NCBI RefSeq assembly: GCF_018977255.1
Contig: NW_024704742.1
Location: forward strand, 121,956,001 to 122,020,000
Direction: 5' to 3'
DNA from: Callorhinchus milii
Taxonomy: Eukaryota
Length of the DNA: 64,000 bases
Notes under the pieces: generated by a model
Told to the model about the DNA's origin: nothing
The model's database searches: none
What the model saw: the letters and a program-made list of their open reading frames with translations, nothing else
Program-made: the position numbers and the translations under genes
In this document: positions 34,059 through 64,000 of the stretch, piece after piece
How positions within the stretch are numbered: the stretch's first letter is position 1
Layout: each line of letters begins with the position of its first letter

Positions 34059-34133
34059 ATTTAACACCATTTTGTCTTAAAATTCAAGATTTAGCTGCTA
34101 GATCTTCAATTTTAAAACAAAATGGTGTTAAAT
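34059..34133. repeat. 75-bp near-perfect palindrome
   Basis: Arms 34059-34095 and 34097-34133 are reverse complements at 34 of 37 positions. Confidence 0.95.
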
Positions 34134-36270: not shown

Positions 36271-36405
36271 ACAACAACAAGATTACATTTGTATAGCGCC
36301 TTTCACATAGGGAGGACGTCCCAAGGCGCTGGACAGAATACAGCATTTCAGACCCGAGCTGGGGTTTGGGGGATAAGGGAGGGGAGAGGAAGGGGGCTGG
36401 CTGAT
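36271..36405 (-). mobile_element. L2 3' end
   Basis: Reverse complement of 5800-5920. Confidence 0.9.
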
Positions 36406-36575
36406 GGCACTAATATATATAATAAATAATAAATATGTAATAAATATTGTCATCATCACCATGACAACACTATGTAAACTCTCCAACCTATTCATTTCAT
36501 GCAAAAAGCTTTTTTTTGACATTTTCTGAGACGAAAATGATATAAAACTTGTATTTTATTTTATTTTAAAATAAT

Positions 36576-36654
36576 ATGCAACAAATTGCTTCTAACAGCT
36601 TATTATGGTATTATCAGCATTGCGGTTTGATGTTCATTAGCTGTGTATTTCCTG
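36576..36654 (+). CDS. Candidate first coding exon, signal-peptide-like (MQQIASNSLLWYYQHCGLMFISCVFP/G), phase 1
   Basis: ATG at 36576, open to strong donor CTG|GTAAGT; 79 nt; unique sequence. No homology evidence. Confidence 0.22.
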
Positions 36655-38469
36655 GTAAGTTGGAATCATTTCCATTGCGCTGCAATTTCAAATTGATCTC
36701 TCCCTCATTTATAATAACATGCTTTTTATCTCCACACCTTCAATGTGTGTAGAACAGATTACCTTATTTTGCACCAGTGGTGCACTGTATGCATTCATTG
36801 ATCTTAACTGTCAATATCTGATAACTACCTTTTATGACAACACCTTGTGCTGCTTAACTTGTTTGTGATTCCAGATAACAGCTAAACTGCTGAATGAGTC
36901 AGGTGACTTAGTTCCTTGTTCTGACTACATTGAACAACCAATTAATAAGCCACAGCCCCATTGTGGAAAAGCAAACAGGACACGTAATTGGACATCACAC
37001 AGAATACAAATTGGCTTCTAATGTTAACTAAAATATTCTACCATCCGGAATTACAATTGGCTGCCACGTTTCACCCACAAAATACACAGTCAATTTACTT
37101 TACAGTATATTCCGTGAAGCGCTTTGAGACATTTTGAAGACGTGATAAAATGCTTTCAAATGCACAAAATTATTATTTTTATTATTATAATATAACTGGA
37201 GTATCACATTATGCCAAACCTTCTCCCTACATTCTTACTCTCCCTGTGACTCATTCATTTTCTCACATTCTTTCTTTCTCTCTCTATTTCTCACTGAATC
37301 TCTCTGATTTTCTATGGGTGACTCTGTATAGCTTTCTCTATCTTTATCTCTATTTATTTCTCTGAATCCCATGCTACACGGTACAAACGTATGGGAGCTT
37401 ACCTTGGTGTCATTGGCAAAACATCCAGTTGTGCACATCCGTGAAGGGAACTGAGGACACGGTTTACTCATGCAGGTTGACTAAATTGGGTCCCTGGTAA
37501 TCTCACTCATATAAGTGCATATTGCAATCTGGAATACATTTGCTGGCAACTTCGGATCCCAATGCAGATAAGGGGTACATGCAGATGTTGCAGTTGAAGT
37601 GTGATTAACTGGAATTCTACTTTATACAAATTGAGATCAAACAAGCAGTATTTTGCAATGCGATTTGCTAACTGGAAATGTGTCTGGTATCCAACAGTTT
37701 ATGGATCCCCTCGCTGAGGATTCTCATGAGTCGGCTGTGATGCACTGCCGGTTCCAAAAGAATTCTTCATAAGGAGTCTGGATCATTATTATTGAATCCC
37801 ATTATCAACACATGTTTTTTAGAGCCTAATGTCTATCCACTTTATTGGATGAAAACCGACTAGACAGTCAGAGCTCCTTGGCATTAGATATTGTGACTAG
37901 TTCAAATATCATTTTTTNAGGGAGACATTATTATATTGGGAGAAGAGAAATCTATTGAAGGCAATTGATACAAAATGTGGAGAATGAGGTTAGGACCACA
38001 GTAACAGGCTGTATATTTTGCCATTAAAGACCCTTTGCCCCATACCCCTTCTGTTTGTGAAACTCCTTCTGGCATTAATAGTTATTGCAAATCAAGTGAA
38101 GTGCTTTGAGATGTTTTGACAGCATATGAGGCGCTTTACCAAATGCAAGGATTATTATTTTTATGCATTGAACACTGAATACATTTTTCTCTTCTCTTCA
38201 GTGGTAATAATGATACTGCCCCTTTGAATGGTCAGCTGCTGAGCCTCGGGTGATCTGTGGCTGACACCCACCGACAGAGCCTGACTGCATCAACGTTGCT
38301 GTCAATGGAATTTAATACATGTCTCTATTCTCAAGTCGGCCCCATATCAATAACAGTGAACATTTGCTTGGCATGTTTTGCTGCACTGCGTGCCAATGTT
38401 AATAATGAGATGCAAACTCACAAATAAAAGGATCAACAAGCCCATGTCACCATTTTCCGAAGCTGACAG

Positions 38470-38780
38470 GCATACTGAAAAACACAGATTCAAAATAGTA
38501 TCTAAAAGTAGCAGAGGGGAGGTGAAAAGAAATTTTTTCAAGCAGTGAGTTGTTCGAATCTGGAACGCATTGCTTGAAAGGGTGGTCGAGGCCGATTCGA
38601 TAACTACTTTTAAAAACGCGGTAGATGGGTATTTAAGGAGCATGGGTTTGCAGGGTTATGGGGAAAAGGCTGGGGAGTGGGATTGACATTAATTGCTCTA
38701 TTCAAAGAGCCGGCACAAACTCGATGGGCCGAATGGCCTCTTTTTGTGCTGTACAATTCTATGATTCTATGATTCTATGA
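38470..38780 (+). mobile_element. CR1-clade LINE 3' end
   Basis: RNFFKQ.VVRIWNALLERVVEA motif; GATGGGCCGAATGGCC; (ATTCTATG)n tail. Confidence 0.92.
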
Positions 38781-39955
38781 ACACAGAAAATTGGTCCAGG
38801 GTCCAAGGAAATAATTTCACTGTTTTGACTCTCGCCTATTCGTGTACGACAGAGCAGTGTGTTTCGGATGCTTATCTTGCACAATAGGATATTGCAATCT
38901 TGCTTTGGGCAATTATTAATAATAATAGCAATAGTAATAATCTTGTATTTGGTATAGCACCTTATTACATTGTAAGGACATCTCAAAGTGTTTTACAAGA
39001 TTTTCTGTGAAATGGATTGACTATGTATTTTGTGGACAAATTTGGCAGCCAATTTTGCACTCAGAAATGTCCCACAGACAGATGTTACTGCACCAGCATT
39101 TTCTTTCCTCTTTTGTTTCCCTTTCATCAAGCCAAACTCCAGTGCATATTGCTCTCCCAATAAGCTGAGTGGTAGAGACACACCCACAGACGTCTCCAGG
39201 AGCTGCGTCAGTGTACGATCCAAGGGTTTAATGCAGAACAAACAGCTCTGTTTGCTCAATGACGCACAAAACTCAGTGCTGATAACATTGATGTAATATT
39301 TCCCAGGTTTTTTTCATTTTACTTTAAAATTGATGCCCTGTAGTACATTTACTGCATTCTTTTTATCACTCATTTAGAGGTGAGGGCAACAACAACAACA
39401 ACTTGCATTTATACAGTGCCTTTCAGCCGAGCCAAAGGAAAAATGTCCATAAGCACTGTCGAAGAGGAAGATCTTCAGGCATGAACTAAAAATGAGGACG
39501 AGATTGAGACGGAGGGATTGATGGAGAGAGTTCCAAAGTTTTGGGACATAGTGGCACAGGACTCTGCCTGACCAAAGAAGATGCTAGGCAATAAACCCTC
39601 ACATAAAATTGATCATTCACCTCCTGGCTGTTTGTGGGACATTCTGTAGCCAAGCCTATCAGATAATTGAGCCTACAAAATATACAGTCACTTCACTTTA
39701 CAGTGAATTCTGTGAAGCTCTATGAGATAGCTCAACGATGTGAATAAGGCACCATATTGTATGCCAGGATTATTATGGTAATAATTGGCCCTGGAATTCT
39801 GCTATCTGAAGATTTAAATCCCAAATGCTCGGAGAGAAGTATGAATTCATAAACCCATCTTTCTTAAATTGATCCCCAGTCTTTAAAAAAAAGTATTCAG
39901 AATTTCAGAGAAATCTTTTCTTTTGAAAGGTCTAAATTTTCGATCTATAAAACTG

Positions 39956-39990
39956 TGAGAGAGAGTGAGAGAGAGAGAGAGAGAGAGAGA
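39956..39990. repeat. (GA)n microsatellite
   Basis: Read directly. Confidence 0.95.
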
Positions 39991-42900
39991 AAAAGTGCTT
40001 TGGACAAAGGCATGGCACTGCAATTGAATTCTTTTCAATCTTTCTAACAACAACAATTAATAACAAATTAGATTTATATAGAGCCTTTCACGTTGGGAGG
40101 ATGACCCAAGGTGCTTAATGTGAAGGTTCTTAGTGTTGAGAAATTTAGGCCAATGCTACAAAATCATTGCTTTACAATTGGATTATTACACAACATTTTC
40201 CTAACAGCTATTTCCAAACCCTAATTTGATACCCTAATTTGTGCTTAAAGTATACTGCTTCCTTTACCCTGGTGAATTTGAGACTGAATTTCTTTTAAAA
40301 ATAAAGCTTCATTGTTTTTAAACTTAGTGTTGCAAATTTGCAGATTAATCCAGATGCCTTGCAGGGTGATAGTTGATCGTACTACATGATAATGCTCAAA
40401 TTTCTCTTCTCCTACCTCCCCCTCGCTAGGCATTTAGATTTTCTAAAAGGACTGTGATGCATCTCGAACATTCATAGCTTTATCATGTAATGTGATCATT
40501 GGAGGTAGCAAGGAAAGCAATAGAGAGTGTGGCGACATTTAGAAGGCAGGCAGTGTCTCAGGAAGTTCTCAGGTCCTTTGACACAATTTGCGTACAGGAT
40601 CTATGTACACTAGAGTGGTTGTTGATAACCCAAAGCGCATATTTCCTGCTTTGTGGTTTGATAGAATGCAGTGAGGTTATGCTTTTTAAGAGTTTAATCA
40701 AATCTGCATCTGTTTTTCCACACTGGGCATTTGTTATAGCTTTCACATTTGGGCTGCTTTAGTTCTATTTCAGAGACTTCAAAGCTACGTGGTTTAGCGC
40801 AGCGTAACGGTTGTTGAACGGTACCAACTTTAGAATCATAGCTTCTTAAATGTTATCAATCTTAATGCTTGGCTTTTGGCCTAAGATTATAAAGTCTGGC
40901 AGATTTCCAGTTTCTGAATGGAAACTATGCAGGATGCTAGCATACCGTGCCTTTAGGAAGTAGATATGAGTGTTGCAGTACTGAAGAGAATGCTTTCAGA
41001 TGTGGAAGAGCATTCTGGCATCAGGGTAAAGGAAACTGTATGTATTAAGCACAGATTGGATCGGTATCAAGTTAGTGTCTGTAAATAGCTGTTAGGAAAA
41101 TGTGGTGTAATAATCCAATAGTGAAGCAATGTTTTTGCAGCATTGGCCTAAATTTCTCAACACTAAGGTTGTCTGAAAATTTAAAGTTCGACCATCTTAA
41201 AAAATATGTGGTTTGGAAGTTTGTGTATCGGTGGTGTAAACTAAAAATAATATTCCTATCTCTATTTGTGCATATTAGAACGTCAATGTTCGCTAGCTTT
41301 CTCTCCTCTTCTCAGGGTGTTTTGATTCCATTTCCCTTCCAATGGGCCATCATGGTGCTGTGAGTGTCTCTGTGCCTCACCCAAGTGATCATTATTCACT
41401 TGTGGTCTTTGACACTAAGGTTGAAAAGGCTTTTATCAGAAAGATGGTCCTGGAAATGATCCCTCAACATTGGAGGAAGTACCTCAAGATATAAAGAATG
41501 AGCCATTAGGGAACCCTATATCTACATGATGCTTATGTAAGGAACTCAACTCTTGGTATAGCCAGATTTCTGTAGGTCAACATGACATACACACAGTTTT
41601 CTTGCAGGAGCCACACTTTACAGAGCTGATGTTAAAACAGTCACTACACTTAACCGTAATTCTTTGTGAAGCTATTTGAGATATTTTGATGTGAAAAAGG
41701 CACTATAAAGATAGAGAAATTATCTTGCCAGCTGCAACATGTCAGCAGTGAGGGATGTGATCAACACACAGTTGACTGACTGTCAAGCAGATGGGATGTT
41801 GACATATAATTTCAATTCAGAAATTCATACAATATCGATTAGGAATTACCACAATGTGGACATATATTTGTACATTCCTGAGATACCATTCTCAATGCTA
41901 TTGTCCCTGAACAGGAATTGATCATTTGACTTGTAGGTCAAAGTAATTTTATGTTCTGTGAAATTCCTTTAGCCCCACTTAATGGTATACTATGTTGTCT
42001 AAGTTCTGCCATATTTTTGGGATATTCTCCATCACTGCTGTCTAAATATTTAGTACAAAACTACCATACACAATTCTTTTGAACTCTGCTGAAGTTCAGA
42101 TACATTATTTTCCAGCCTATTTTGCTTATGTCTTTTCCTGAATGTAATACTTCTCTTGAAACAAGCCAACAAAGGCTCCACTTGCAAAGGCAGAACTGTA
42201 TTCAAAAATCAAGGGCATTTGTATTCAGTATTTGCTGTTAGGTGTGTACAACGCTATTTCAATTGTTTAGGTAATAGTGTTGATCTGTTACAGATGATTT
42301 CCTCACTTGTGAATACACCACATTTTGACGTAGAGATTTCAATTATTTTGGAAAATAAATCTCTGATGTGTTCTTAAGTACCTGTGCGCCATAGCTCATT
42401 CATTTGAATGGGTTATTAAGAATACAAATAATAATAATCCTTACATTTGGTATAGTGCCTTTTACATCAGGAGGATGCCCCAAAAGCAGTTCACAGGATT
42501 TACTGTAAAGTGTAGTGAACGTCTATTATGGGAGAACAGTTGCATCTGTTTTGCAATTTATATGAGAAAGATTTAATCAGTCATATCTACCCTGTGACTG
42601 TCAATCTTGTGAGGCTAGGGCTGTCATTAGCTGTACCATTGCCCTTAAAAGTGGATTTCAGCCATTGAAAATAAACATAAAAGATTCTCCCGCCTCCAGG
42701 AAGTTCTAGGTGATTCACACCTGTCTTGTACTGCAAGGGTGTAAACTTCCCTTATGCTGAAACTATATCAACCTGGTCTCAACCACCCTTTCTGGTAACC
42801 TGTTCCCTCTCAGTAAATAAATACTTTTGTGATTTCATTTTGCAACTCCAGACCTGTGTCCCCTTTTCTCTTGTCTTGATGCATTCCAATGTATTGTTCT

Positions 42901-44122
42901 GGGTGTACTTTTTCAATACTCTTTAAAATGTTATAAACGATTTATCTTAACATTGAGTCAGTTCAGAATTACAGTGGCAGACCATCAGCTGGGTTTAAAT
43001 TGGTATTAAAATAATTCAGTGTGTGTTGCGGTCCCAAAGGCCAGTTTAACTAAGTGCAATGCAAGTATATCTTAATTTCATGATTGCAGTATATATTTGT
43101 GCAATATTGACACTTGTAATCTCTGCAATACCTTAGTGATCAGCGTTAGTTGAATGGGCTATGGAAGTTGAGTATGAACAATTACAGTCTCTTTGATCAG
43201 GCAGTATATTAACATTAGCTAACAATTTGCACATTCTCATCATTATGACATACAGATGTATGTTATGGTTTCACATAACACAGGCTTAAACATTGAATGG
43301 AATTAATGGATTGTCAAATCAAAGTTGAAGTGAAGTATTACAATAAGAATAATGATTTCTTGCATTTCATATTGTGCCTTTCACATTAGGTGGACAACTT
43401 AAAGATTGTGTATTTTGTAAGCTAACTGAGATCTGAAGGTACTTACTCCATGAAAAGGTTTCTCACCAGAAAAATTCTTTTAGAAAAGCTGTCCGAAGTA
43501 AAGAACTGCAAATCAAGACTAAACAATGAAAAATATCAGTGGAGTAAAAAAGTGTTGTAGATTCAGAAGTCAGAAACAACTGAAGAGTGAAAGACTAAGA
43601 TCTCAGATTACATACAGCTCATTAGGTTATATGAAATATGGTGATATTTTTATAGTAATTGAAACAGTAACTTTTAATGACCATTAAACCATGATCAATT
43701 TCAAAGGGTATTTTTGGATCCAAGACAAATTCAGCAATAGACTATATAATAAAAATATAGCAACTGCATCCTGTAAGGTTACTCAAACATTCCCATACGG
43801 TATGAATTTTTTAATGGTTTGCTTAGTTTACACCTACTTTTATTGCTATAAACGTGGTTACAATCGGGAAATTCAAGTTTCCTAAAGCTTTCTTTTTTGC
43901 AAGCAATTACAATCGCTAAACTGGATTACTCATGACAACTTGTAAGGTTTCTTCCTTTCCCACAATTGTGGTCGCTGTAAATCTCTTGCAGAATTACTCT
44001 GAGATGTCAACCTTTGTTGCCAAGCTCAAAGTGTGTGTAGTGGGGGGCGTATGCATCAATTGACGTGAACTTGTTTATATTTACTTCAGTGTTGATCTCT
44101 TAGGCCACATTGTCAAGATCAC

Positions 44123-44350
44123 AATAATAATAATAATAATAATAATAATCCTTGCATTTGATATAGCGCTTTTCACGTCGGGAGGACGTCTCAAAGCAAA
44201 TAGTCTCATTTGAAAGACGGTCCCTCGAACAACGTAATACATCCCATCATTGAAATGGAGTATCAACCCAGACTATATGAGCTTAGTGTTCTGATGTGGG
44301 GTATGAATCCATAAACCTCTGACTAGAGAGTGCTAGCGACTGAGCCAAGC
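44123..44350 (-). mobile_element. Young CTCCC-loop SINE tail abutting an old DeuSINE 5' part
   Basis: Pristine tail at 44123-44197, then degenerate GTCTCATTTGAAAGACGG...GAGTGCTAGCGACTGAGCC. Confidence 0.8.
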
Positions 44351-45778
44351 TTATAGAATGACATAATTTCAACTTCACCGGTACCTTCATGTTCAACTGT
44401 GAAGCCCATCATATTGCTTGAGTGCTGTTTGAAGCAGATTTCTACTGCTCAATGTAACTCAAGCAGATATGCCAAATGACAAGATACTCCCTGAAAATGA
44501 CCAGCTAGTAAGCAAAAGCAAAGGCGACCTATTGTTCTTTGTGAAGATGAATCCATATACAATTGTCCCTTTGAGGCTCTGTCACATCTGAACACTGCAG
44601 CCATTCTGAAGTACCAAGATACCACTTACACTCATCGAAGCTCTCTTTTTGCTGGAATATTGAAGTCAAACAAGAATATCAAATTGATGATTATTATTCT
44701 TATCAAATTGTTGAGATGCCCTGCTTTGACTGTCTCCAGATTCATGATGCAAATCTTATAAGAAGCTTGGGCATCAAATCAAACTCCTGGACACTGTACT
44801 ATATAAATTCATAGGAACTATGATGAAGTTACCACAAGATGTGGAGAAAATTACCCCAAAGTCTCCTACCTGTTGCTTAATCTGCAGGAGGTGTGCTAGC
44901 TCTCGGCAATGAGGGGAAGCTAATAATTTCTTCCACAACTTATACTTATACCGTGCCCTTCACACAAGGTAGTGTCTCAGAACAGTTCCACCAAAATTTT
45001 GGCATAAAATTTTAACATGTTGCTTCTTCCTTCAAATTGGCAGCAAGGAATGATTGCGAGCTGCGCACCATTGCTGATGATTGTGAGAACAAGCTACAAA
45101 CACTTGCACACAACACAGATGTAACATATCACTTTCATTTCCATCTCTCCTTGCCAAACAGCAAAGTTTATGTTCCACTGTAATCTAACCAGCAGGAAAA
45201 ATCATGTCTTGGGTGACAGAGGGAGCTTCGAATGATGTGACCAACCTCACAGAGAACCATTATTAAACAAGCAATATGGAATGCTTTCATTCTACCACAG
45301 AAACTTGCAATGTGACATCCGCATTTGGCTATTTTTGTTCATGATTATTATGATGGTGAAAAGAGGCAAAATTGCCATAGAATTCCCACCATTTGGGGAT
45401 GACCATGTGGGATTGTATGTAATGTAGAATGTGGACCTCACTGTCAGAAGTTGTGGTTGAAGCAAATAACACCAATGTAGTTAAGAGAAAACTTACAAGA
45501 GGGAGCAGGGAATAGAGGAGAGAGGATTAGAAGGGGTGGAAGCTTGTGTGGAGTGTAACACTGGCACAGACCTGTTTCCGTACTGTTAAGTTCTATGTAA
45601 CTGTTTGTGGGAGTGTTTACTGTTTGCAGGAGCAGGACATTAAAAGCCGTGGTGGTTGAGTTTACGGCTCACTAGTACCGGTTGTCCGTGATCTATTACA
45701 ACACAAACTATGACTTGTAGCCCATTTATAGAAACAAACAGGAGCTAAATGAATGCATGGTTTGGTTTCTGATTACCA

Positions 45779-45788
45779 CTATAAATAG
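45779..45788 (+). promoter_or_regulatory. Overlapping MEF2 site / TATA box (CTATAAATAG)
   Basis: Exact match to CTA(A/T)4TAG containing TATAAA; ends 33 nt before the ATG at 45822. Confidence 0.35.
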
Positions 45789-45821
45789 TGCAAACTCCAA
45801 CATTACTTCCCTTCTTCTGTA

Positions 45822-45876
45822 ATGAGCTTGATGGTGCCTGTATTAGGCCTGTACCTCTGGTTATTCCACACAAAAG
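45822..45876 (+). CDS. Candidate signal-peptide exon (MSLMVPVLGLYLWLFHTK/G), 55 nt, phase 1
   Basis: ATG to consensus donor AAG|GTAAGT; hydrophobic core; unique sequence. No homology evidence. Confidence 0.33.
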
Positions 45877-46909
45877 GTAAGTTTCTAGCCCAATAAATGG
45901 TAAAATGTAATATTGCTACATCTTTCTCTGATATTAATCAGAATTTTAATTTGTAGCAATGAATATCCTTTAAATGTGCAATAATTATGCAGTGAAAAGT
46001 AGTCCCCTTCTAAGTGTTGAGTAATCTCAGCGGATGTAAAATAGCTTTTATTGGTCAACTATAAAGTTGTGTTGATTTTGAAGAGATGAGAACATTGCAA
46101 ACAAATAGATTTCTAAATTGGTACTTTACAGCAATAATTTAGCATTTGATAAAGCACCTTTCACATCAGGATGACGGTTTAAAGAGATTCATTGGGTTTG
46201 CTGTAAAGTGTAGTGACTATTTTGTAGGTAAACGATTTATGAATGATACTTTAGAATATCCTGAGTATAGAATATACTTTAGATGACTAATGGTTGACTG
46301 TCTACCCAGACAGTAATCAATGTGCCATGGCTTGTTTTATCTTGAAACCTACAAAATATAATGGTGTAGATTTTACAATTATTGTTCGTGGGTAGATTGG
46401 ATTTAGCACTTCACTGGCAATGGATTTCCCAGTTATTTTTCTTTATTAGCAAAATGACCACAGATGTCATAGTAATGTAAAATTGATTTGGTGGAAGTTA
46501 TTTCTTGTACTAATAGAATACAAATTTGATGCTCATCCTATTTAGCCTGGAGACAAATGTAAAGGAGGTAAATGGTAGACAGGCATTTGACTTATTAAGT
46601 ACCTGAGAAGTCCAAACATCTAGGAATATGGGGAAAAAGCTGGAATGTAGGATTAATAAAGAGGTTTGTATGATAATACATCCTTGCATTTGATATAGAA
46701 CCAGTGCGAAGGCGCTAAATACATACAACTTGTTGTTGTGGAACCTATCACACAATTGACGTGTCTCAAAGGACTTCACAAGAATTACTGTAAAGATTAG
46801 TGACTGTATTTTGTTGGTGAACATCTATTTTGTAGATGATTGTCCTGCTTTGATCTCAGTTCCTGACCTGCAGTGACCTCACATCCTGGCCCCTGAACTT
46901 CTTTGATCT

Positions 46910-47215
46910 CGAGAAGACAGCTTAGAGGGGACCTGAAAGAGGTGTAGAAAATGTTAAATCAGATTGAAAATGTAAACCCCAATCAATACTTTAGGATGTA
47001 TCAAGACAAGATATAGGTTTAGATTTTAAAAGGGCAATTCCAGGATAGACACCAAGAAGATTTTATTTACCCAGACGGTAATCAATGACTGGAAAAAGTT
47101 ACCAGGCCCCTAGACCAATTTAAAATACAGCTTGATGGAGTGATGAGGGAACTGTAGGGTGGGTTTTCTGGAGTAATGAGATCGGATGAGCTGAAGGGCC
47201 TTTTTCATCTTGAGC
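46910..47215 (+). mobile_element. Old CR1-like 3' fragment
   Basis: GAAGACAGCTTAGAGGGGACCTGA (RR.LRGDL); TTTACCCAGACGGTAATC; GATGAGCTGAAGGGCC. Confidence 0.78.
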
Positions 47216-47594
47216 AGCAACAACAACAACTTGGATTTATATAGCGCCCTCCAACCCAGACGGCGTCTCAGAGCGCTTAAACCTTATTTTATTGTGAACA
47301 ATTGTCCTAAAGTTATGGGATAATCACACCTGAGACCCCTTGATAATTAAATAACAGATTTTACCAGTATAATTGAATCAAACTAGAATTCCGTGCAGCG
47401 GGATTGAAAGGCTTGATCACAGATGTCAAAAGATAACTGTGAGCCAAACTATTGTGCTGAAATTGGGGTGGGGAAAGGAGATATGTTTTCTCCTAAACCT
47501 TCTAACAATTAAAGGTAGGTTTAGAGGATACTTTTTAGCCATGTGCACAACGCGAACCATCTGAAAGAAATCATTGATGTTCAGTCCACACATA

Positions 47595-47842
47595 GAACAA
47601 TAACTTGCATTTATACAGCGCCCTTCATGTAGGATAACATCTTAGAGCATTTATCAATGACAGGGTTGAACATGGGAGATGGGAAGGGGTGAAGGGGAGG
47701 TGACCAGAGGTGCGGTTGAAGAGGTAAGTTTTAAGGTGGAATTTAAAGACACATAGAGAGGGGGCAAGATGAAATTGGAGAAGTTCGTGGAGGGAGTTCC
47801 AGATATTAGCAACACAGTAATTGAAGGATCAGTCACCAATGG
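47595..47842 (-). mobile_element. Old L2 3' fragment
   Basis: Tail plus GAAGAGGTAAGTTTTAAGG...GAGGGAGTTCCAGA, the reverse of LWNSLP...LKT.LF. Confidence 0.72.
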
Positions 47843-48024
47843 CAGTAATCTAATTGACTATGAATCGATTCAGGCAGAATTTATTTTCAAGTCTGGTTCA
47901 CTGTTAAAACCTTTATTTCTTTAAATAAATCTGTTGAACTTTTATACTGCTGCACGTTTTACGACCTGTTACTTTTAGCGCTTAACTCATCTGATTGCTT
48001 TGCATGTGCGTGTTGTGATAACAA

Positions 48025-48090
48025 TTTATTCTCCCTTTCTCTAGGTAAGTAACACAACTAAAATGAAAGAAGTGAAAGATCTTGGTAAGA
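48025..48090 (+). other. Candidate recursive splice site (AG|GTAAGT) with 40-nt RS-exon/microexon 48045-48084
   Basis: TTTATTCTCCCTTTCTCTAG|GTAAGT...GATCTTG|GTAAGA; no AG from 47979 to 48042; branch-like CTTAAC (47981) and CTGAT (47991); TGCATG at 48001. Confidence 0.6.
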
Positions 48091-48486
48091 TTAACTGTTT
48101 CATTTTTAATAATATTTAAAATTGTTCCCAGAGGAATTCTTGCAAACTGTGAAGGCACTTAAATGAGCAAAATTACTTGCCTTTGGGTAACCATGTGTGA
48201 TTGATACTTTGAGCTGTCTTTTACCTTGTATCTAATTGACAGATTGTTACTGAAGAGAGACAGAAATACCGTGACTGTTTTTTAAATGAATGTTAGGGAT
48301 AGCTAGCTGGTGCAAATCCAGAATTGTAATTTAAGAATAAATCTGTGGTCATAGGCTGTATTGTGCTACCATCAGGTGGGTCAGTCCGTTAGGAGTTACC
48401 ATTTGGCCTGGGTAGCAATTCTTGGTTCAAAGCTGATTATGCTTAGAGAATGATTTAGCATCTCCCTGGCATAAATTGTGATTGAT

Positions 48487-48519
<33 letters not shown>

Positions 48520-48609
48520 GACACATGCGAATTGTGGACTGCATATTGTTTGAAGGATTTGGCCTGTCATCTCAGTCTTCAGAATAACTTGCTGGGCCTT
48601 CAAAACCCA

Positions 48610-48830
48610 TAGAATTAAACAAATGTACAGCGCAGAAGGAGGCCATTCGGTCCTTTGAATCTGCACCGGCTCTCGGAGCAAACTGCACTTTCAATACCAG
48701 CACTCTTCCCTATCTCCATACCACTTAAACCCTAACTTTCATATTCCTATCTACTTCCCTTGAAATCCACAATAGACTCTGCCTCTGCCACCTTACTTGG
48801 CAGTTCCACATCCCAACAACTCCCCAAAAT
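48610..48830 (-). mobile_element. Old CR1-like 3' end
   Basis: CAGAAGGAGGCCATTCGG...GGCAGTTCCACATCCCAAC, the reverse of the CR1 3' UTR. Confidence 0.75.
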
Positions 48831-51027
48831 ACAAAACAATACACCATCACCACCACCACCACCAACGACTTGCATTTATATAGCGTCTTCCATGCGAGTA
48901 ACATCTTGGAACGCTTAAATGTATTCATACATTTATATAGCACCTTTCACATTGTGGGGGATAACTCAAAGCACTTAACAATATTGATGACACCCTAGCT
49001 GGGTGTGGGCCAGGTAATAAAGCACTGTATATCTAGACACAGGTGGTATTTCATTCCAGGAAATTATTCTTGTTAGCTTTTTGATCCACTGTACCTAGAT
49101 GTCTATTAGTACTACAGCAAAGTCTCCCAAAAGGAAACCATAACTGAGAGAATGGGAAAACGTACTTTTGTTATCCTGTAACCAGAGCAATCTAATGAAT
49201 ATTCAATAGTCGCTTTTAATCCTCAGATCAAGGCATATAAAAGAACATGAATAAACCCATGCCTTTTGTACGCATATCTCTGTGTGACTAAAGCACGAGC
49301 TTTGATCTCCAAATGACTACTCCAAGCGAAAAAAATAATCCTACAAATCGGTGTTAGTGGGAAGCAGGTGGCCTCAGAATTTCCATTACAGAATATTGAA
49401 CTATTCTGTAGACTACAGCAGAAAGCAAGAGCATCTTTAATGCACGGTTTCCATTTGGGAAACTATTTAAAAATAGTAAGACTAAATAGAAACGAAATAC
49501 TTAGTCTCGCTATTTTTAAACAGAACAACAACTTGCATTTATATAGCGCCCTTCACGCCAGACAGCATGAAATTGATAGCAGCCTTAACTGATTAACACT
49601 CATTCCAGTTATGTGAAAAATGACTTTAAAATGCACTTGCTTAACCTACAAAACATAACGCACCAGAACTTTGAAGCCCATTTTCAATTAAAACAGCATG
49701 AGACCTTAGTTTTTCAGTGGAATAGGCTTTTACAATAATTGTGTGCCCAGCTATACATTTGAAGCTAAACGTTATTTTGCAGAAAGTTCTGTAACTGCTT
49801 CTTTAGTGAACAAACACACCGTGAGAAAGTCCTGGTACAGTGAAGGTGAAAAATGCGGTCTGAATATTATGAAAACATTGATCGCTGTGGTGCAAAACCA
49901 ACCGATAATGTTTGATGGTGGATGCAGATATGAATCCCCCCCCCTCATAGGAATTGAAAAAGTCAGATTTCATCAAATTATGCCATTTATATGGCAAGTG
50001 AGATTTGAGTGGATGTACCATCCATTCAGCTTGAGATGCAGTGTAGTTTGGTCCAGTTCATTTGTGGTGCTTGGGACAATAACCATTTATATAGCATCCT
50101 TCAGACAGTATGGGGTTTTGGAGTACTGCACAATGGCGGGTTTGGAATCGAGCAAGGGAGAGAGAGAAGAAAATGGGAGATGGCTAACAAATCTCCCAAA
50201 TAAGATTTGTCCCTCACTCCATGGCTGTTTGTGGGACAATTGCTGTGGGCAAAGTGACTGTCGAGTTTGCCCACAAAATACACAATCAATCCATTTTACA
50301 ATATATCCTGTGAAGCGCTTTGAAATGTCTCAATGTCGTGATAAGGCGCTATATGAAATGCAAGTATTACCATTATATTCCAGGCACAGTCTATAAATTT
50401 TAAGGAGGGATTTAAAGTTAGATAACAAAGGGATGAGGCAGAGGGAGGCAGGGAGCTCTAGAAATTAGGACTACTGACTGAAGACACAGCCACCGATAGT
50501 GACAGGCAGGCATTAGGGGATGCAAAGCAGGCCTGTGTCTACTGAGCAAAGGAGGTTGGCAGTGGAGTGGGATACAAGTACCTTGTGTCCTGTTCCATCC
50601 GTTGCTGCGGTTTGGGTATTTTTAGTTTGATGGTGCTGTTTGATTAAATGGTCCATTGTTTAGTTTGTACTGGGTAGAACAGTATTTGATTTGATTGTGC
50701 AGCCTGCAGTGTTGTTTAGTTTGATAATGCAGTTTGGAATGTTCTTTGGCTGCTTTGCTCTGATGTAGACAGCAGGGAATGTCAGTATAAGTGCCTTCAT
50801 ATCATCATGTCATCCTCACTTTATGAGTTGAATTGAAAATGGTGAAAGAGATCCGTAATAATGTATGGACCCCTGTGCCAACCCTTCTTGATCAAATGAT
50901 GGGCAAAATGCCTTTAGATTATCAAAACGGCCTGAAGGTTAAAGTACTGCAGTTTTGAATGTTTGCCTACAAAATATACAGTCACTAGAGCTTGCAATAA
51001 ATTCTATAAAACACTTTGAGACAATTT

Positions 51028-51410
51028 ATAATCCTTGCATTTGATATCACAACATCGAGACGTTCTCAAAACGGTTTACAGGATATATTGTGAAAAGGAT
51101 TGACCATGTAGTTTGTGGGCGAAATGCAACAGCCAGTTCTGCACATAACAAATGTCCCACAAACAACCATGGATTGAATGACCAATTTTATTTGGGGGAT
51201 TGTTGGCCAGGAGAAACTCCCTTCTCTTTTCGAATAGTGCCATGGAATCTTTAACGTCCACTGAATAGGCAGTGGATTAACGTCTTATCCAAAGGATAAT
51301 AACACAGACCCTTAGCACTGCCCTCGAGTGTCAGCTTAGACTATGTGATTCCAAGACCCAATGTGTGGCTTGAACTCACATCTTTCTCATTCAGAGGCAA
51401 AAGTGCTATC
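51028..51410 (-). mobile_element. DeuSINE (SacSINE1-like), near full length
   Basis: Tail, TTCGAATAGTGCCATGGAATCTTTAACGTCCAC core, CAGAGGCAAAAGTGCTA head. Confidence 0.85.
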
Positions 51411-52313
51411 CCTGGGGAAGACTGACACACAACTTGCATTTATATAGTTCCCTTCACACTGCCAGCATCTTGGAGCACTTAATATATTGAACTGGGAAGA
51501 GAGGGAGGTGGCCATTGACATGGTCAAAGAGAAAGGTCTCCAGAAACTAACTGAAAATGGGCAAGGAGGAGGCAAAGCAGAAGGATTGACATCTTCCCAA
51601 CATGAAGACACAATAACCAATGTAAGATTGATGATGATTATTATAATTATTACAGTAAACTCCTGATAACTTGTCAATCCATAGGAAAAGGGCTCAGTGA
51701 CGAATTAGCTAGGATTAAGCCAGGGTCAAGTTATCAAATTATTATTATTATTGTCTCCTTAATAATAATAATAATAAAATCCTCAGTTTATTTACTAAAT
51801 GACCAGAAGCTCTAACAAATTAAATGATATTTCATAGATGCTATTGAAAAATTAACTGCAGCCCATTCCATAGGAATGAGAATAAAATTAGATTTCTGCA
51901 GCATTGTGTGTAATTTGTTTCAATTACAGTACAACATCAGGTTTATGGTGAGATTTTTGATTGCATTTACAACATTTTTTGCATGGAATTATGAGTTGTT
52001 ATTAACTACTTAAAATTATAAGGAGAAATTTTCAATTGAATTAAACTTTCTAAGTCCGGTGTTGTCCTATATATTGTTATATTCAGCGCCTTGAGCCGTC
52101 CTCCTGATGTGAAAGGTTCTATACAAATGTAATTTTGTTGTTGTTGTCGTTATATTCATCTTAATCTCCTGAAATACAGCCCAGTATATCTAAATGCCAT
52201 ACAGTGTCTCAATTATCACAGTTACCATCATCATCGTCATCATGTGTTACTACTGCATCACCTCTGGTTTGACCTTAGAACAGGTGAAAAGCAGTCAGAA
52301 TGCCTCTATAGAC

Positions 52314-52442
52314 AATAATAATAACCCTTGCATTTGATATAGCATTTTTTCCATCTTCTAGACGTCTCAAGGCGTTTCATAGAATATACTGTAAAGTGAA
52401 TTGACTGTATATTTGTGGGCGAATCGCGGCAGCTAATTTGAC
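52314..52442 (-). mobile_element. SINE 3' fragment (TAGAA loop)
   Basis: Reverse tail and body. Confidence 0.9.
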
Positions 52443-53144
52443 AAACGTTATCAAAGAACCACTGAACACTCTTAGCAGTGAGTCCAGATAGGGAGGTGGG
52501 AGAAACATGATAGGTGAAGAATTCAGCTGGTTGTGATCTGTTCAATGTTAATGTCAGCCTGTCAGGGAGTTTGAGAACCAGGAGCATGAGATGAATAGAA
52601 GCAAGTTCTGATCCATTAATTGTTTTCTCCAAAAAAATAGAAATGTTAAATTTGCTACTGAAGATCACATTTCACAGCTGGGTTTCTGCTTCTGGTCTAG
52701 CTGTTAGTGAAATTGGTTGTTCTTGGGTAAAACACTATTTTTTGTGTTGGGAGTTCTTGCTTTGCTAATTCTGCTTTTTGTTTATTCTCGTTTCATATTT
52801 ATGAGATGAAGGGCGAAAAAGTTGACCTTTGTGCAGGATTAACTTCACTGTTAAAGCCATGCATTTTCCTGTCACAATCTTTGCATAATCCAAGCCACGA
52901 TCTTTGCACCAGCACGGTATGAATTATACGAAGATGAATGAGCCAAAAATATAGCTTTTGGGGAAGTCGTTTGATAATACCCGCATGGAGTAATCAGCGA
53001 TTTTCCAGATTAATATCTTTGACTCCCATAAATTATTTCAACAAAGATTTTTACTGTTATTAGTAAATGTCAATTGAATTCACATGAAATTGAAAAGCAT
53101 GGCTCATCTCTGAAGCTTTGCTAACTCGCTGCTTTCTCATTGTG

Positions 53145-53423
53145 GGGTGATTCCCGGCAGGGCGAAACGTCGGGCATTTTTCCTTACTCCACACTCCTCT
53201 GTTTACCTAGCAGTAAGTAAGAACCCGTCAATTGATGGATTGCTTTTCCAGGGGTAATGAATTCCTTCAAAAAAAAATAATTTGGTCACAATCCACGGCT
53301 GTTTATGGGACACTGCTGTGCGCAATTAGTTGCTGCGTTTTGTTCACAAAATATACAGTCAATTTACTTTACAGCATATTCTGTAAACCGCTTTGAGACA
53401 TCTCGAAGATGTGATAAGGTGCC
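53145..53423 (+). mobile_element. tRNA-derived SINE, long variant, lacking most of the head and the terminal tail
   Basis: GATTCCCGGCAGGGCGAAAC...GATGTGATAAGGTGC, then an abrupt switch to CR1 sequence. Confidence 0.9.
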
Positions 53424-55190
53424 TTTGAGGACAGATTGTAAGAGTTTTTACAAGTACATAAAAAGGACAAGACTATCAAAAGTGAATGTGGGTCTATTGC
53501 AGGCAGAAACAGGAGAAATTATAACGGGGAATAAAGAAATGGCAGTCATTGAACAAATATTTTGCCTCTGTTAGAGAACACTGAAAGCTTACTGAAAATA
53601 GAGGGGAACCTGGAGGCTAATGTTAGTGAGTAACTTAAAGAAATGAACATCAGTAAAGCAATAGTACTAGAGAAATTGATAGGATTAAAAAACGATAAAT
53701 CCCCTGGACCTGATGGCCTGCATCCTAAAAGAGGTGACTGCAGAGATAGTGGATGCTTTGTTTTTAATCTTCCAAAATTTCCTGGATTCTGGAATGGTTC
53801 CCAGTGATTGGAAGGTCGTAAATGTAATGCCGATATTTAAGAAGGGTGGGAGACAAAAAATGGGGAACCATGGACCAGTTAGTCTGACATCGGTGGTAGG
53901 GGGACTTCGTCGTGGGGTACTTAGAAAATCATGACACGATTAGGCAGAGTCAACATGGCTTTACGAAAAGGAAATCATGTTTAACAAATCTTTTAGAGTT
54001 TTTTGAGGATGTAACTAGCAGGTTAGATGGGGGGAACCAATAGATGTGGTGTATTTGGATTTCCAGAAGGCAGTCACATAAAAGGCTGTTGCATAAGATT
54101 AGAGCCCATGGAATTAGAGGTAATATATTAGCATGGATTGGAGAGTGGCTAACAGGAAGAAAACAGAGAGTAGGGATAAACGGGTCCTTCTCAGATTGGC
54201 AGGATATGATTAGTGGAGTGCCACAAGGATCAGTGCTTGGGCCTCAATTATTTACAGTCTATATCAATGATTTAGATGAGGAAATAGAACTTAACATAGG
54301 TGGGAGAGTAAACTGTGAGGATGCCAAATGAAGAATGCAAAGGGAAATAGACAGGCTAGGTGAGTGGGCAAGAAGGTGGCAGATAGAGTATAACATGGGG
54401 AAGTGTGAAGTTATTCACCTAGGTAGTAAAAATAGAAAAGCAGGTTATTTTCTAGAGGGGGGAGAGACTAGGTAGTGTTAGTGTTCAGAGGGATTTGGGT
54501 GTCCTTGTACACCAGCCACAAAGAGTTAGTATGCAGGTACAGCAAGCAATTAGGAAAGCTAATGCCACGTTGGCATTGGTTGCAGAAGGGTTAGAGTACA
54601 AGAGTAGGGAAGTTTTGCTGCCGTTGTATAAAGTCTTGGTGAGACTGCACCCAGAATATTGTGTGCAGTTTTGGTCTCCTTATTTAAGAAAGAAAGGACA
54701 TATTTGCCTTAGAGGGGGCGCAGCATAGATTCACTAGGTTAGTACCTGGGGTGAGGGGGTTGACCTGTGAGGACAGGTTGAATAAACTAGGCCTATATTC
54801 TCTAGAATATAGAAGAATTACAGGTCTTATAGAAACCTATAAGATTCTTAAGGGTCTTGACAGGGTAGATGCTGTGAGACTGTTTCCCCTGGTTGGAGAA
54901 TCTAAAACTGGGGTTATATTCTCAAGATTAAGGGTCAACCTTTTCTAACTGAGTTGAGGAAACATTTCGTCACTCAGAGGGTAGTGAATTTGTGGAATTC
55001 TCTACCCCAGAAGGCTGTGGATGCTAAGACTGAGCTTGATAGATTTCTAAAGAATAGAGGGATTAAGGGATATGGGGATAGGGCAAGTAAATGGAATTAG
55101 GTTAGAAGATCAGCCATGATCTTATTAAATGGCGGGGCAGGCTCGAGGGGCCGAATGGCCTACTCCTGCTCCTACATCTTATGGTCTTAT
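53424..55190 (+). mobile_element. CR1-clade LINE, 5'-truncated ORF2 (RT) plus 3' UTR, pseudogenized
   Basis: [89 protein letters not shown]; the FADD segment is deleted at about 54290; tail TCTTATGGTCTTAT. Confidence 0.96.
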
Positions 55191-55941
55191 ATTACTGACT
55201 GTTTGATAGTAAAAAATTTGAAATATTATGAAATACAAATAGCACATGTATTAATTATAGTGAAGTCAAAGCACTTATTTAGTTTGGGATTCATAGCATT
55301 CATTGTTAGTTACCACATTACTACTCTATTTATGTATGTGAGTCACCAGTGGGTAGACAATCCATAGTTATTTGATGCTCCCGAGCTTGAAGAAATGAAG
55401 CTCAGGGGAAGGACACAAGACAGTTTGCAATACATTTGTTCATCTCTCTGATCCTGCAGCCGCTGTTGATCTTTGTTTAATGTGGGGATCAATCTTTTGC
55501 CATGTTTATCAGCTCTTTACCCTTCCTCTTTATCTTTCAAGTCAGCTGTGAGCAATGTAATGTCTATTGCAGTCAGTCCAGGTTCAGTATTACAGAATCA
55601 TAGAAAGTCTGGTGAGCGTGCTGTTCATTTAGTTCCCTGCATTGAATTGTGATTGACATAGTTCGGGATTCAATCATTCGTTGCTCTTAATAAAAGTTTA
55701 GTAAGCACCTTACCATAAATTAAGGAGAATTGCAATATCTATCACAATGCTCCTTGTTAACTTATGGAAAGGTGGCAAGAAGGAAATATTGCAAAGAAGT
55801 CTTAACTCATAATTTCTATTCAGCTATTCATATTTAGATCAAGGATTTATTTAAATGTGCAACAGTGTAACTTTATTAAAAATACGTTTGAATCCACTTT
55901 CATTTGGTCAAGAGCTGGATTAGCAGTTCTACCACTGATAT

Positions 55942-55957
55942 CCATTAGAGGGCGCTG
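55942..55957 (+). promoter_or_regulatory. CTCF-like motif CCATTAGAGGGCGCTG
   Basis: One deviation from the CCASYAGRKGGCRS core; retains a CpG in CpG-poor unique DNA. Confidence 0.45.
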
Positions 55958-56130
55958 CAGGCACAAATACTGAATCTGCTTCATTGAGCAAATAAATTGA
56001 AGGGTTTTATTTGTAGCTGAAATATTTATACTTATCTGATGGAATATTATTAAGGGATATTAAGAACCAGGGAAGGTTGAACAAATGTTATTAATTTTTG
56101 AAATTATCTATATTAACGTATGATAATCCT

Positions 56131-56400
56131 AATAGCAATCCTTGCATTTGATATAGACTGTATGATATATAAATAGTGTATACATAGTATCAGAGTATAT
56201 CTATCGCATAATCTATATCAAATGCAATGATTATTATTAGTATATGATATTTGATATCAGATGTCTCAAAGCACTTCACAGGATATAATGTAAAGTGATG
56301 CAACTCTGTGATTTGTGGGTGAACATGACAGCCAATTTGCACACAGCAAAGTCCCACAAACAGCCATGGAATGAGTGACCAGCTCTATTTGGTGGATTAG
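56131..56400 (-). mobile_element. SINE 3' fragment with a fold-back duplicated tail
   Basis: Tail at 56131-56160 recurs inverted at 56209-56238; body continues at 56250-56400. Confidence 0.82.
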
Positions 56401-56579
56401 GTAAACATTCTCATTGCTCATTGAAATATATTTGAACTGGATTGGTGCCTAAGTTTTTTTTATAAAGGAAGAAACCTATGGGTTTCCATCAATAGAACAT
56501 TAATAAATATTGTAATTATTTGCTGACAATTACTTGTACAGTTAAAAGACACTTTCCTTTGTATTGGTATTGAAGTGAT

Positions 56580-56790
56580 AATGATAAACATTCCTGGTAT
56601 TTGGTTTAGCATCTTTCATGTCTAGAGGGCATCTCAAATGCTTCACAGAATAAACTGTAAAGTGTAGTGACTGTGTTTTGGAGGCAAACCAGCAGCCTAT
56701 TTGTGCGCAAGAATGTCCCACAAATTACCATGACGTGAATGACCAATTTTATTTGGGAGGTTGTTGGCCCGGACACCAGGAGATACCCAC
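56580..56790 (-). mobile_element. DeuSINE 3' half
   Basis: Reverse tail and TGTTGGCCCGGACACCAGGAGA core end. Confidence 0.8.
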
Positions 56791-57494
56791 TTCTCAGCCA
56801 GGGTTTTTAAACTCCCAATTGCTATCCATTGGCTCCTGCTAGAAAGTATATGTTTGTGGATATTCAACAAGACCAGGATCAGACTGTAGCTGGTTGTAGT
56901 GCCCCTGGTGGGTGTATAGGCTGCTGATACCCACTGTCTCGGGTTACACCTGAAGCATAACCATGCAAGCAAGGCATCAGAGGACTGTTAACAGTAACCC
57001 CCGTCTGGAGGAAAATTAGCTCTGCTCCAACCAGAGGTTCCTCAGCATTGCTTTCTGTGCACATAGGATTTCAACTGTCTTATCTTTTGTTGTTACTAAC
57101 TCACTTAATGCTAGCCATTTAGAGATAGGAAAGTCGCCAGTGTAAATAAAGAATGTATTATCTACATTGTTAAATCAATTCACTCCATGCTAAATAGCAG
57201 GGCATTTCTGCTCAAAGTACATAAAACAGAAAAACAAGCCCTCTGCTGGTGGTTCTAAGCACATTGTGCTTGAAGAAACATTTTTTTNCAATGTCGGTCA
57301 GGAAAAACAAAATATTACGGTAAAAAGATTGAACAGAGAATTGTTATATACTTGTTGGCTAGATTTGATAACTTTTAAAAGTTACAGTCAAAGCACTTCA
57401 CGGGATATTCTGTAAAGTGGAGTGATTGTGTGTTTTGTGGACAAACAAAGATGTCACATGAACTGCAATGCAGATAAAGGCCCCTGCATTTCTA

Positions 57495-57646
57495 TAGGGA
57501 ATTGGATAGGTACTTCAAAAGGAAACATTTGCAGGGCTGTGGGGTAAGAGTGGGGGAGTGGGACTAGTTGGAAAGCTCTTTCAAAGAGCCGTCACAGACA
57601 CAATGGGCCGAATGGCCTCCTTCTGTGCTGTAAGATTCTATGATTC
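57495..57646 (+). mobile_element. CR1-clade 3' end
   Basis: GGGGAGTGGGACTAG...AATGGGCCGAATGGCCTCCTTCTGTGCTG...ATTCTATGATTC. Confidence 0.9.
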
Positions 57647-57934
57647 GAGTGAGGATGGAACATACTACAGGGTAATGAAGAGATATATGGGTGTTACTTG
57701 ACTCATCACTCACCATGTCCAACCAATGTGAAGCAGCAAAGCACAAAGGCAAGTGGGATACTGGCTATATTGCCATCGCAGTTGTATTCAGGTTCCCACA
57801 GGTGCATATAATGAATTGATTAGTCTGGATCTGGAGAACTCTATAAAATTCTACACACTTGCATTTACCTAGCTAGGTTTCATGAGGGGTAGGGCCTTGG
57901 ATTGCTTAACAGTGGCAGCGCCCGGCGCCGTCAA

Positions 57935-58242
57935 TATAATAATAATCCTTCCATTTGATATAGCGCCTTATTATGTCTTCAAGATATCTCAAAGAGCTTC
58001 ACAGAATATACTGTAATGTGAATTGACTATGTATTTTGTGTGTGAAAGTAGCAGCCAATTGCACACAGCAATGTCCCACAAACAGTCGTGGATTGAGTGA
58101 ACAAATTATTTATTTTTTGAAGGAATTATTATCCCCGGAAAAGCGATCTGCCAATTGACAAACAATCGGGTTCCTACTTACTGCTAGGTAAACAGTGGCG
58201 TGCAGAGTAAGGAAACTTGCCCAACATTTTGCCCTGCTGGGA
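57935..58242 (-). mobile_element. tRNA-derived SINE, long variant, head missing
   Basis: Reverse tail, body and internal segment. Confidence 0.93.
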
Positions 58243-58702
58243 AACTATACTATGAAAAGTACTTACTTTAAACATTGTGCTATAAAGGTACTGTTTTTTT
58301 TCTTTCATTGTGGACAATGTTGAAGTTCTGCCCGGCTTCTGGTTTGTTATTTCTTTTATATAGATCCAAATTATGCATTGGAATACCTTCAGTAAGCCGG
58401 GGTCCTGGGCACTGCTTTGTGTTCAAATCCATTCACTCCTTGGCACCTCCCTACTTCTCCGACCTCCTCACTCCCCAATCCACCACCTGACGCCTCCGCT
58501 CGACTGGCACCAGCTTCCTCTTCTTCCCTCGCACTTTTATAGATTTTACATTTATTTTGGTTAAATATTTCTATGTATTTTGTATGTTATTCCTCCCCTT
58601 CCCCTTTCTTTGCTTTAAGTTGCCTGGCCTGTGTTTCACATCATTCATGCAGTGAGGGATGGTGCACCTGAATGACCTGCTCTCAGGTTTCTGCACCCAA
58701 TT

Positions 58703-58772
58703 GAACCACTAGATGATGATCACGATAATAATAATAATAATAATAATAATAATTCTTAGGAACCACTAGATG
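58703..58772. repeat. (AAT)n tract flanked by the 13-bp direct repeat GAACCACTAGATG
   Basis: Copies at 58703-58715 and 58760-58772. Confidence 0.9.
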
Positions 58773-60084
58773 GTGTCCAAGAGCAACATCTGGGATACTC
58801 ACTCAACCTCTGGTAAAGCACTTGAATTGGTTTCTGTGCCTTGTGCCCGATTCAATGCCAGAGATCAGTAACTCACACCCAGAGAATAATTACAGCCACG
58901 CAGCAGTGACTTAGAACTGATACTTTCTGTCTCAAAATCATTCATTGCTATTGCAGTATTCGATTTACTGATGGTCCCAAGTTCTTATTCAGTGAGCCAC
59001 AGAAATGACAGCTTCTGAATCAATGCAGCAGATCTAAAACTGACACAGTAGTTGTACTGTTTTTCATTCCATCTGCAATTAGCAAACCAGTGGGGAAAAC
59101 CAACAGCGAGGAAGGATTTAACAATCTCCGCTTTAAGTTGTATTTTTGTGATGAATGATTGTGCGGCAGCTCAAATCGAAAACAAAAGCCTGAATTGTGA
59201 ATGGAAGAAATAGAACACAAGAAAATCTGATCGTGCACAAGAGCCTGGGTTGCTCAAAGACTTGCTATGTTAGGAGCTGTGTCATCTTTAATCATGTCTT
59301 AGCCCTGAATACACCAGAGGAAACGGCATATTTGGTTATGTGTTGTTTTTCTTCATTCCCTTGCAGCAGGTGGTAGGAGAGGAGGGCAATCCAGTTTTTC
59401 TCATCTGAAAACCCATCAGGAACCTGTGGGTAAAAACCTGTCAAATTTGCTTATTCAGCTGAGACATGATCTGACTCTACCTGAATTTGCTTGTATTTTA
59501 TCAACCAATCGTAGGCAGCACATTTCTTGTAGTTAATTGCTTGATGAGGAAATCTAACTGATTGTCTTGCATGCTCCATCACTATGACTGATATTTTAGC
59601 AATTACTTCTCAAATGGTACCTTATGTAGCATTGTCTTATTGCAAAACAGGTGTTATGCTAGCAGAAGGGACTTGAGAGCAGGGACACTCTACAGAAGGA
59701 TGCATTTTTTCAGCTGTCAGACTGGAAAGTTAACAGCAGTGAAACTCAATGCTAACATTTTAACAGTCGCAATTAGTAAAATCAAATGCAATTGATACCA
59801 CAGAGAGAATGCGTGGAATACTAGATTAATTTAATTACATTCTATCAAGTTGCAGGGATAATATTGCTCTTGGGAAGCCCTTTGGGTGATACATTAAACC
59901 AAGGTCATATCTGCCTGTTCAGGTGGACATTAAAGATCCCTCAGTATTAATCGAAAAGAAACGGGAGTTTCTCCCGGTATCCTGGCCAACCACCTCCAGA
60001 TAACATTTTCCATGGGAAGCGGATATTGACAGCACGGTGAGTTAAGTGGTAGTGACAAGTTCAGCCAGGGTCGTGTAATCAGGA

Positions 60085-63960: not shown

Positions 63961-64000
63961 GATTTACTTTTAGGAAAGTAGTTTTTGTAAGGAGAATACT

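Follow-up and report, generated by a model that had tools for sequence, protein, structure and literature searches.

A probable counterpart of RS1, a recursive splice site of mammalian PDE4D, in a 343-kb intron of Callorhinchus milii

In the scheme set out for vertebrate recursive splicing (RS), an RS-exon is defined, splicing attaches the upstream exon to it, and the donor rebuilt at that junction competes with the donor of the RS-exon itself (PMC6224609, PMC8911335, 10.1101/2025.08.14.666599). Human PDE4D is reported to carry three saw-tooth RS sites (hg19 chr5:58,981,769 [RS1], 58,764,261, and 58,678,237; PMC6110456), and the supplements to that study give junction reads and phastCons values of ~1 for the sites (supplements 5, 11, and 12), as well as a lariat joining RS2 to RS3 (supplement 13). 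According to the supplementary figures of a mouse study that applied an intron-length criterion of >51 kb, Pde4d likewise has three RS sites, all of which read AG/GTAAGT (PMC8797253, S3 and S4 Figs; the slash marks the splice boundary here and below). In the table of that study, all three mouse sites are listed with zero downstream junction reads and with poor downstream donors. A lungfish study, in the part relevant here, examined RS in other genes and included human PDE4D as a control alone (10.1101/2024.12.11.627982).

The site described below, in PDE4D of Callorhinchus milii, compares most closely with human RS1 and its mouse equivalent (chr13:109,333,510): the gene and the strand sense are the same, as is the interval between two alternative first exons, two more sites follow, with their order unchanged, and mouse RS1 also reads AG/GTAAGT, with a similar 20-mer upstream. 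The differences are partly ones of scale, with human RS1 lying 82 kb from the upstream donor in an intron of 552 kb, versus 53 kb and 343 kb here. They also concern the downstream donor, which is clear at +40 here, whereas the mouse table lists RS1 with a 208-nt exon, a poor donor, and zero reads (PMC8797253). Moreover, recursive use has been validated for the mammalian PDE4D sites, whereas the use proposed here would follow by orthology. Outside PDE4D, the arrangement resembles CADM2 RS1, as described in a preprint that also recounts the zebrafish cadm2a test of Sibley 2015 and thus cites recursive splicing of CADM2 as published for zebrafish (10.1101/2025.08.14.666599), in its very long intron, in an RS-exon donor weaker than the rebuilt one, and in a premature stop; in that description, CADM2 RS1 follows one main first exon, whereas the nested alternative first exons that the site would serve here are several in number and uniformly of phase 2. 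The published accounts of Drosophila ratchet points show a comparable layout as well, with AG/GTAAGT, a donor <100 nt downstream, and cryptic RS-exons (PMC8605326, PMC6224609), but these belong to a different lineage, and no homology is claimed.

The window, by which we mean the whole stretch of 64,000 nt that was analyzed (C1:121956001-122020000, C1 being contig NW_024704742.1), falls within PDE4D, on its sense strand, as judged from domain profile matches, structure matches, and motif scans for first exons (Table 1). The PDE4 UCR and catalytic Pfam domains were found on the plus strand at C1:122.36-122.41 Mb, 340 to 390 kb past the window, and a catalytic exon compared with the PDB scored higher against PDE4D (123.7 bits) than against 4A (113 bits) or 4B (112 bits). 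An ELOVL gene is located upstream of PDE4D on the same strand, in line with the ELOVL7-PDE4D neighborhood of human, where ELOVL7 is upstream. The long-form first exons, placed by short motif scans and labeled D7, D4, D5, D3, and D9 after the PDE4D isoform names, follow the order of 4D, and no D8-like first exon was found with the motif used. Host searches with two other profiles led elsewhere: titin-like matches dominated with the I-set profile, and no match to the C2-set_2 profile was placed near the site. The original prediction had put the site in a giant plus-strand intron and had listed PDE4D among the genes known for this architecture; the domains, the PDB scores, the ELOVL neighbor, and the 343-kb length of the intron that runs from the D5-like donor to the common exon place it in just such an intron of PDE4D.

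Table 1. Features of the window and of the surrounding PDE4D locus (positions with the prefix C1 are contig positions; all others are window positions)
Feature	Position	Strand	Basis or remark
D7-like first exon	end C1:121825562	+	short motif scan
D4-like first exon	end C1:121853975	+	short motif scan
D5-like first exon	end C1:121950637	+	short motif scan
Window, in PDE4D 5' introns, D5-like to D3-like first exon	1..64000	+	exon-end coordinates
AG-exclusion zone, 64 nt, before acceptor	47979..48042	+	sequence inspection
Three branch-point-like words	47982..47995	+	A at 47985, 47989, 47994; candidate use
TGCATG	48001..48006	+	44 nt upstream of site; candidate RBFOX word
Polypyrimidine tract, 14 unbroken pyrimidines	48029..48042	+	pattern scan
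TAG, acceptor end	48042..48044	+	sequence inspection
Flagged site (first strong sense site)	C1:122004045 (window 48045)	+	YAG/GTAAGT scan
GTAAGT, intronic half of rebuilt (recursive) donor	48045..48050	+	holds TAA in frame after phase-2 exons
Predicted 40-nt cryptic RS-exon, middle purine-rich	48045..48084	+	would be poison behind each of the three upstream coding first exons
RS-exon own donor TTG/GTAAGA	48085..48090	+	best donor in 300 nt, weaker than rebuilt
D3-like first exon	end C1:122050520	+	short motif scan
Second strong sense site	C1:122159517	+	YAG/GTAAGT scan
Third strong sense site	C1:122191368	+	YAG/GTAAGT scan
D9-like first exon	end C1:122261261	+	short motif scan
PDE4D first common exon	start C1:122293423	+	short motif scan

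The last base of the D5-like first exon is 5,364 nt upstream of where the window starts, and that of the D3-like first exon is 30,520 nt downstream of where it ends, which places the flagged site 53,408 nt past the D5-like donor and 46 kb ahead of the end of the D3-like exon. From the D4-like donor, the intron to the common exon measures 439 kb, and the distances from the D7-, D4-, and D5-like first exons to the first common exon range from 343 to 468 kb. As expected of an RS site, the flagged site is thus located on the sense strand of a long gene, close to its 5' end and in an intron of >50 kb.

It also combines, deep within that intron, a strong acceptor with a donor that immediately follows it (YAG/GTAAG). 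All of the elements that had been predicted were present, namely, the 64-nt AG-free zone with its branch-like motifs, the TGCATG word, the pyrimidine tract, TAG/GTAAGT (boundary between 48044 and 48045), and, 40 nt further on, TTG/GTAAGA (boundary between 48084 and 48085), with an ATG at 48063 inside the 40-nt exon. The AG dinucleotides flanking the AG-free zone are those at 47977-78 and 48043-44; the branch-like adenines are located at -60, -56, and -51 relative to the site, distances that are in keeping with the long AG-free zone. Pyrimidines make up 17 of the 20 nt before the YAG, the best value among the 12 [CTA]AG/GTRAG sites on both strands of the window, and in the surrounding 664 kb the site ranks first of 242 AG/GTRAG sites when these are sorted by pyrimidine content and then by AG-free length. 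TGCATG, the RBFOX consensus, has a chance occurrence of ~3% per 100 nt here; the full word is absent upstream of the other two PDE4D candidate sites, and the copy found here may have a role in regulating the site. The RNA fold of the region from 47960 to 48120 was no better than that of shuffled sequences (z = 0.48).

The region had been described as nonrepeat DNA, and this was confirmed at two scales, with zero repeat matches to positions 47826 to 48485 in the 664 kb around and with positions 47900 to 48200 being single-copy in the genome. Of 12 runs considered for positions 47826 to 48485, 6 contained that stretch in part or in full, and none is recorded as RNA; four of the 12, all consisting of contigs, yielded one 214-nt contig, free of joints and loose ends, that covers positions 47826 to 47963. 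An Rfam scan of the window returned tRNA-like repeats alone, away from the site; the five matches (6138 to 6194, 9261 to 9332, 19844 to 19897, 23129 to 23199, and 63887 to 63958) are most likely the heads of tRNA-derived SINEs. Fragments of LINE reverse transcriptase are also found in the window (e.g., 18210 to 19648).

The 439-kb span from the D4-like first exon to the common exon contains six YAG/GTAAGT sites in the sense and four in the antisense orientation. When a strong pyrimidine tract and a long AG-free zone were required, with cut-offs that were set after inspection of the list, three of the six sense sites and none of the four antisense sites remained, versus 0.09 expected. The 3-versus-0 count was unchanged for thresholds of 12 to 14 pyrimidines and of 15 to 30 nt free of AG; at 15 to 16 pyrimidines, the strong sense sites dropped to two, and a looser GTRAG core brought in a fourth. 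Expressed as fractions of the interval between the D5-like and the common exon, the three sites lie at 0.156, 0.609, and 0.702, versus 0.149, 0.543, and 0.699 for the human sites, a match with P = 0.004 under uniform placement; the D3 exon lies at 0.291, versus 0.329 in human. The second site deviates most, being off by 0.07 of the interval, or by 0.13 if measured from the D3-like exon. For the sequence comparison with mammals, low-complexity 20-mers and position were used in place of a multispecies alignment. The 20-mer upstream of mouse RS1 scored highest at the flagged site, with a score equaled by 0.9% of 1,168 pyrimidine-rich acceptors, and the mouse RS2 20-mer scored highest at the second site (0.4% of acceptors). 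With the mouse RS3 20-mer, the third site did not stand out (13%), and the second one gave the better score (3.8%). For the flagged site, conservation is thus indicated by just two measures, its position (P = 0.004) and one 20-mer (0.9%).

Given this agreement in position with the validated mammalian site, which fits the RS architecture that had been predicted, we consider the flagged site to be the counterpart of mammalian PDE4D RS1, with a probability of roughly 0.84. The second and third sites are probably the counterparts of RS2 and RS3. Both read TAG/GTAAGT; a good donor lies 122 nt downstream of the second site, and weak donors alone, at +60 and +68, lie downstream of the third. Since the mouse Pde4d table is without downstream reads and gives poor donors, conservation of the 40-nt exon is unsupported, and the exon and its donor may be lineage specific or may just have escaped resolution in the mouse data.

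The three coding first exons upstream of the site (D7-, D4-, and D5-like) are all of phase 2 and would splice in frame to the common exon. Because of this shared phase, a retained RS-exon would bring an immediate stop, with TAA as the first full codon after each of the three, and decay would be expected, as a long distance separates the TAA from the junctions downstream of it. The original prediction had reasoned correctly on stops and frameshifts for all three phases, and the poison effect that it foresaw is real for the exons actually located upstream. Any exon starting with GTAAG yields a stop after a phase-2 exon, so this poison property needs no separate selection. As for the donors, the computed U1 duplex of the rebuilt donor has an energy of -12.2 kcal/mol (D7-like), -10.9 kcal/mol (D4-like), or -10.7 kcal/mol (D5-like), versus -8.0 kcal/mol for the RS-exon donor, and matches to the consensus number seven or eight of nine for the rebuilt donors, versus six of nine for that of the RS-exon. 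Skipping of the RS-exon is therefore predicted. Both properties expected of an RS-exon, a donor weaker than the rebuilt one and a premature stop on inclusion, are accordingly found here. In the mouse table, the donors AAG/GTAAGT and ACG/GTAAGT are scored at 11.0 and 11.81, respectively (PMC8797253).

From these elements, a two-step course of events can be proposed. To reach the common exon, D7-, D4-, and D5-like transcripts would have to bypass the alternative first exons downstream of their own. In the first step, the strong acceptor and the donor at +40 would define the 40-nt RS-exon, and the first exon would be joined to the AG that ends at 48044. That join would rebuild a near-perfect donor (AAG, ACG, or CTG followed by GTAAGT), which in the second step would beat TTG/GTAAGA and be joined either to one of the RS sites further on or to the common exon, with no trace of the RS-exon being left. 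Where the weak donor won instead, the exon would be kept, TAA would be the first full codon, and the mRNA would be a target of nonsense-mediated decay. The anatomy of the site, its host gene, strand, and position, the exon phases, and the relative donor strengths can be read from the locus directly; that splicing is stepwise in Callorhinchus milii we infer from mammals.

The same elements could in principle belong to an ordinary poison cassette exon, with the 40-nt exon being retained, in which case decay would follow, or else skipped in one step, and with the donor at 48045 idle. Such an exon would make good use of the strong acceptor, the upstream TGCATG, and the purine-rich exon body, its donor resembles the native D5-like donor (both at -8.0 kcal/mol), and the exon junction complex has been described as able to repress rebuilt donors (PMC6224609). 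However, the perfect GTAAGT at the exon start, the occurrence of two more such sites in PDE4D, and the fact that recursive use has been validated for the counterparts in mammals would all be left unexplained, and we regard a cassette exon as quite unlikely.

The motif alone is rare and unenriched, as the exact pattern Y14-AG-GTAAGT occurs 4 times genome-wide, versus 33 times for its reversed control, 17 times for a control pattern of the same composition, and 9 times for the reversal of the latter. With up to two mismatches allowed, 0.27 occurrences are expected per shuffled window, and two were seen, one of them exact. The full pattern, including the second donor, has one match in the genome (versus two for its control), a uniqueness that was given no evidential weight because the pattern had been tailored to the site. 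The case for the site therefore rests on its location, the motif by itself being insufficient as proof. These numbers also bear on whether the motif might be a product of chance, or a decayed one, functionless in Callorhinchus milii. While control patterns of equal length do occur 9 to 33 times genome-wide and pyrimidine tracts easily look alike, chance accounts poorly for the finding that all three strong sites are on the sense strand, in mammalian order and at similar positions, and for a signal with every part intact; we find this explanation very improbable.

The lower count of the acceptor fused to a perfect donor relative to the three controls (4 versus 33, 17, and 9) hints that motifs of this kind are selected against except at functional sites. 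One of the other three exact matches, C7:14509840 (plus strand), has a 39-nt AG-free zone with closed frames upstream and is located ~94 kb before same-strand ZU5 exons, the split pattern of which we read as UNC5-like rather than ankyrin-like; it is a candidate RS site in a gene absent from the mouse list of PMC8797253, as far as that list is given. A second, C11:1922477 (plus strand), is preceded by an open proline-rich frame and may be an ordinary exon end. The third, C19:5315116 (minus strand), has an AG-free zone of 16 nt.

Hardly tenable is the alternative, raised in the original prediction, of a small exon, either coding or an alternative start, whose product would begin MKEVKDL at the ATG at 48063, also if it is fed by the segment from 45822 to 45876, which that prediction had named as a possible minor upstream exon: even with an ATG and a donor present, and with PDE4D rich in alternative first exons, the 22 nt from ATG 48063 to the donor give phase 1, whereas the common exon needs phase 2, the join to the common exon stops after three more residues, the 64 kb contain zero CpG-island-like windows, versus one at the D3-like promoter, and the upstream exon fails similarly, having no AG in front, no nearby CpG island, and, from ATG 45822, phase 1, which puts it out of frame with the common exon and leads to an early stop. 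The donor at its end (AAG/GTAAGT, boundary between 45876 and 45877) is strong, and there are two possible upstream AGs, for exon starts at 45827 and 45847. A 30-nt version, 45847 to 45876, would keep the frame if preceded by a phase-2 exon and is formally possible as an internal exon; its acceptor is weak (11 of 20 pyrimidines).

A Pfam domain search identified four PDE4 loci in the genome. Upstream of the first common exon of the three paralogs, no sense RS-like site with at least 13 pyrimidines was found in the spans scanned, which were 120 kb on C21 and, as partial scans, 60 kb on C5 and 20 kb on C29. On C21 and C5, the introns matching those of PDE4D are short, at ~37 and 17 kb, respectively. 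With paralog introns this short and no site in the parts read, an origin of the RS sites before the vertebrate genome duplications is unsupported. The multipromoter layout itself does predate the PDE4 duplications, as the paralog on C21 (8.40-8.45 Mb, minus strand) has retained first exons of the D4-, D5-, and D3-like types with their order unaltered, its introns being ~10 times shorter. At the C5 paralog (C5:3570425-3574743), the catalytic exons match on both strands, with one match duplicated, which suggests a local inversion, a duplication, or an assembly fault; 50 Ns are present in the 60 kb read around it.

Since both the mechanism and the PDE4D RS sites are already known in human and mouse, the added value of the Callorhinchus milii locus most likely lies in deep conservation. 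A literature search returned no report of these sites in cartilaginous fish, and the supplements of Sibley 2015 may list fish orthologs. A more far-reaching version of the RS1 reading, unlikely in our estimation, would have the three ratchet points constitute a scaffold for splicing that was preserved, at almost fixed fractional positions, from the last ancestor shared by jawed vertebrates onward, even as intron length changed 1.6-fold. By the same speculation, RS1, with a 40-nt poison exon that is still usable in this lineage and with its RBFOX word, could serve as a decay switch under tissue regulation; it would lower the long D7-, D4-, and D5-like forms only, sparing D3 and the forms downstream of it.

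If the sites are confirmed, all three would go back to the ancestor that jawed vertebrates have in common, which lived ~450 million years ago. This would argue for long-term selection on these few fixed RS sites, which a 2025 preprint still describes as generally unsubstantiated (10.1101/2025.08.14.666599). In Callorhinchus milii, PDE4D would then provide a distant ortholog for locating the bases that matter, including those of the RS-exon donor left unresolved by the mouse data.
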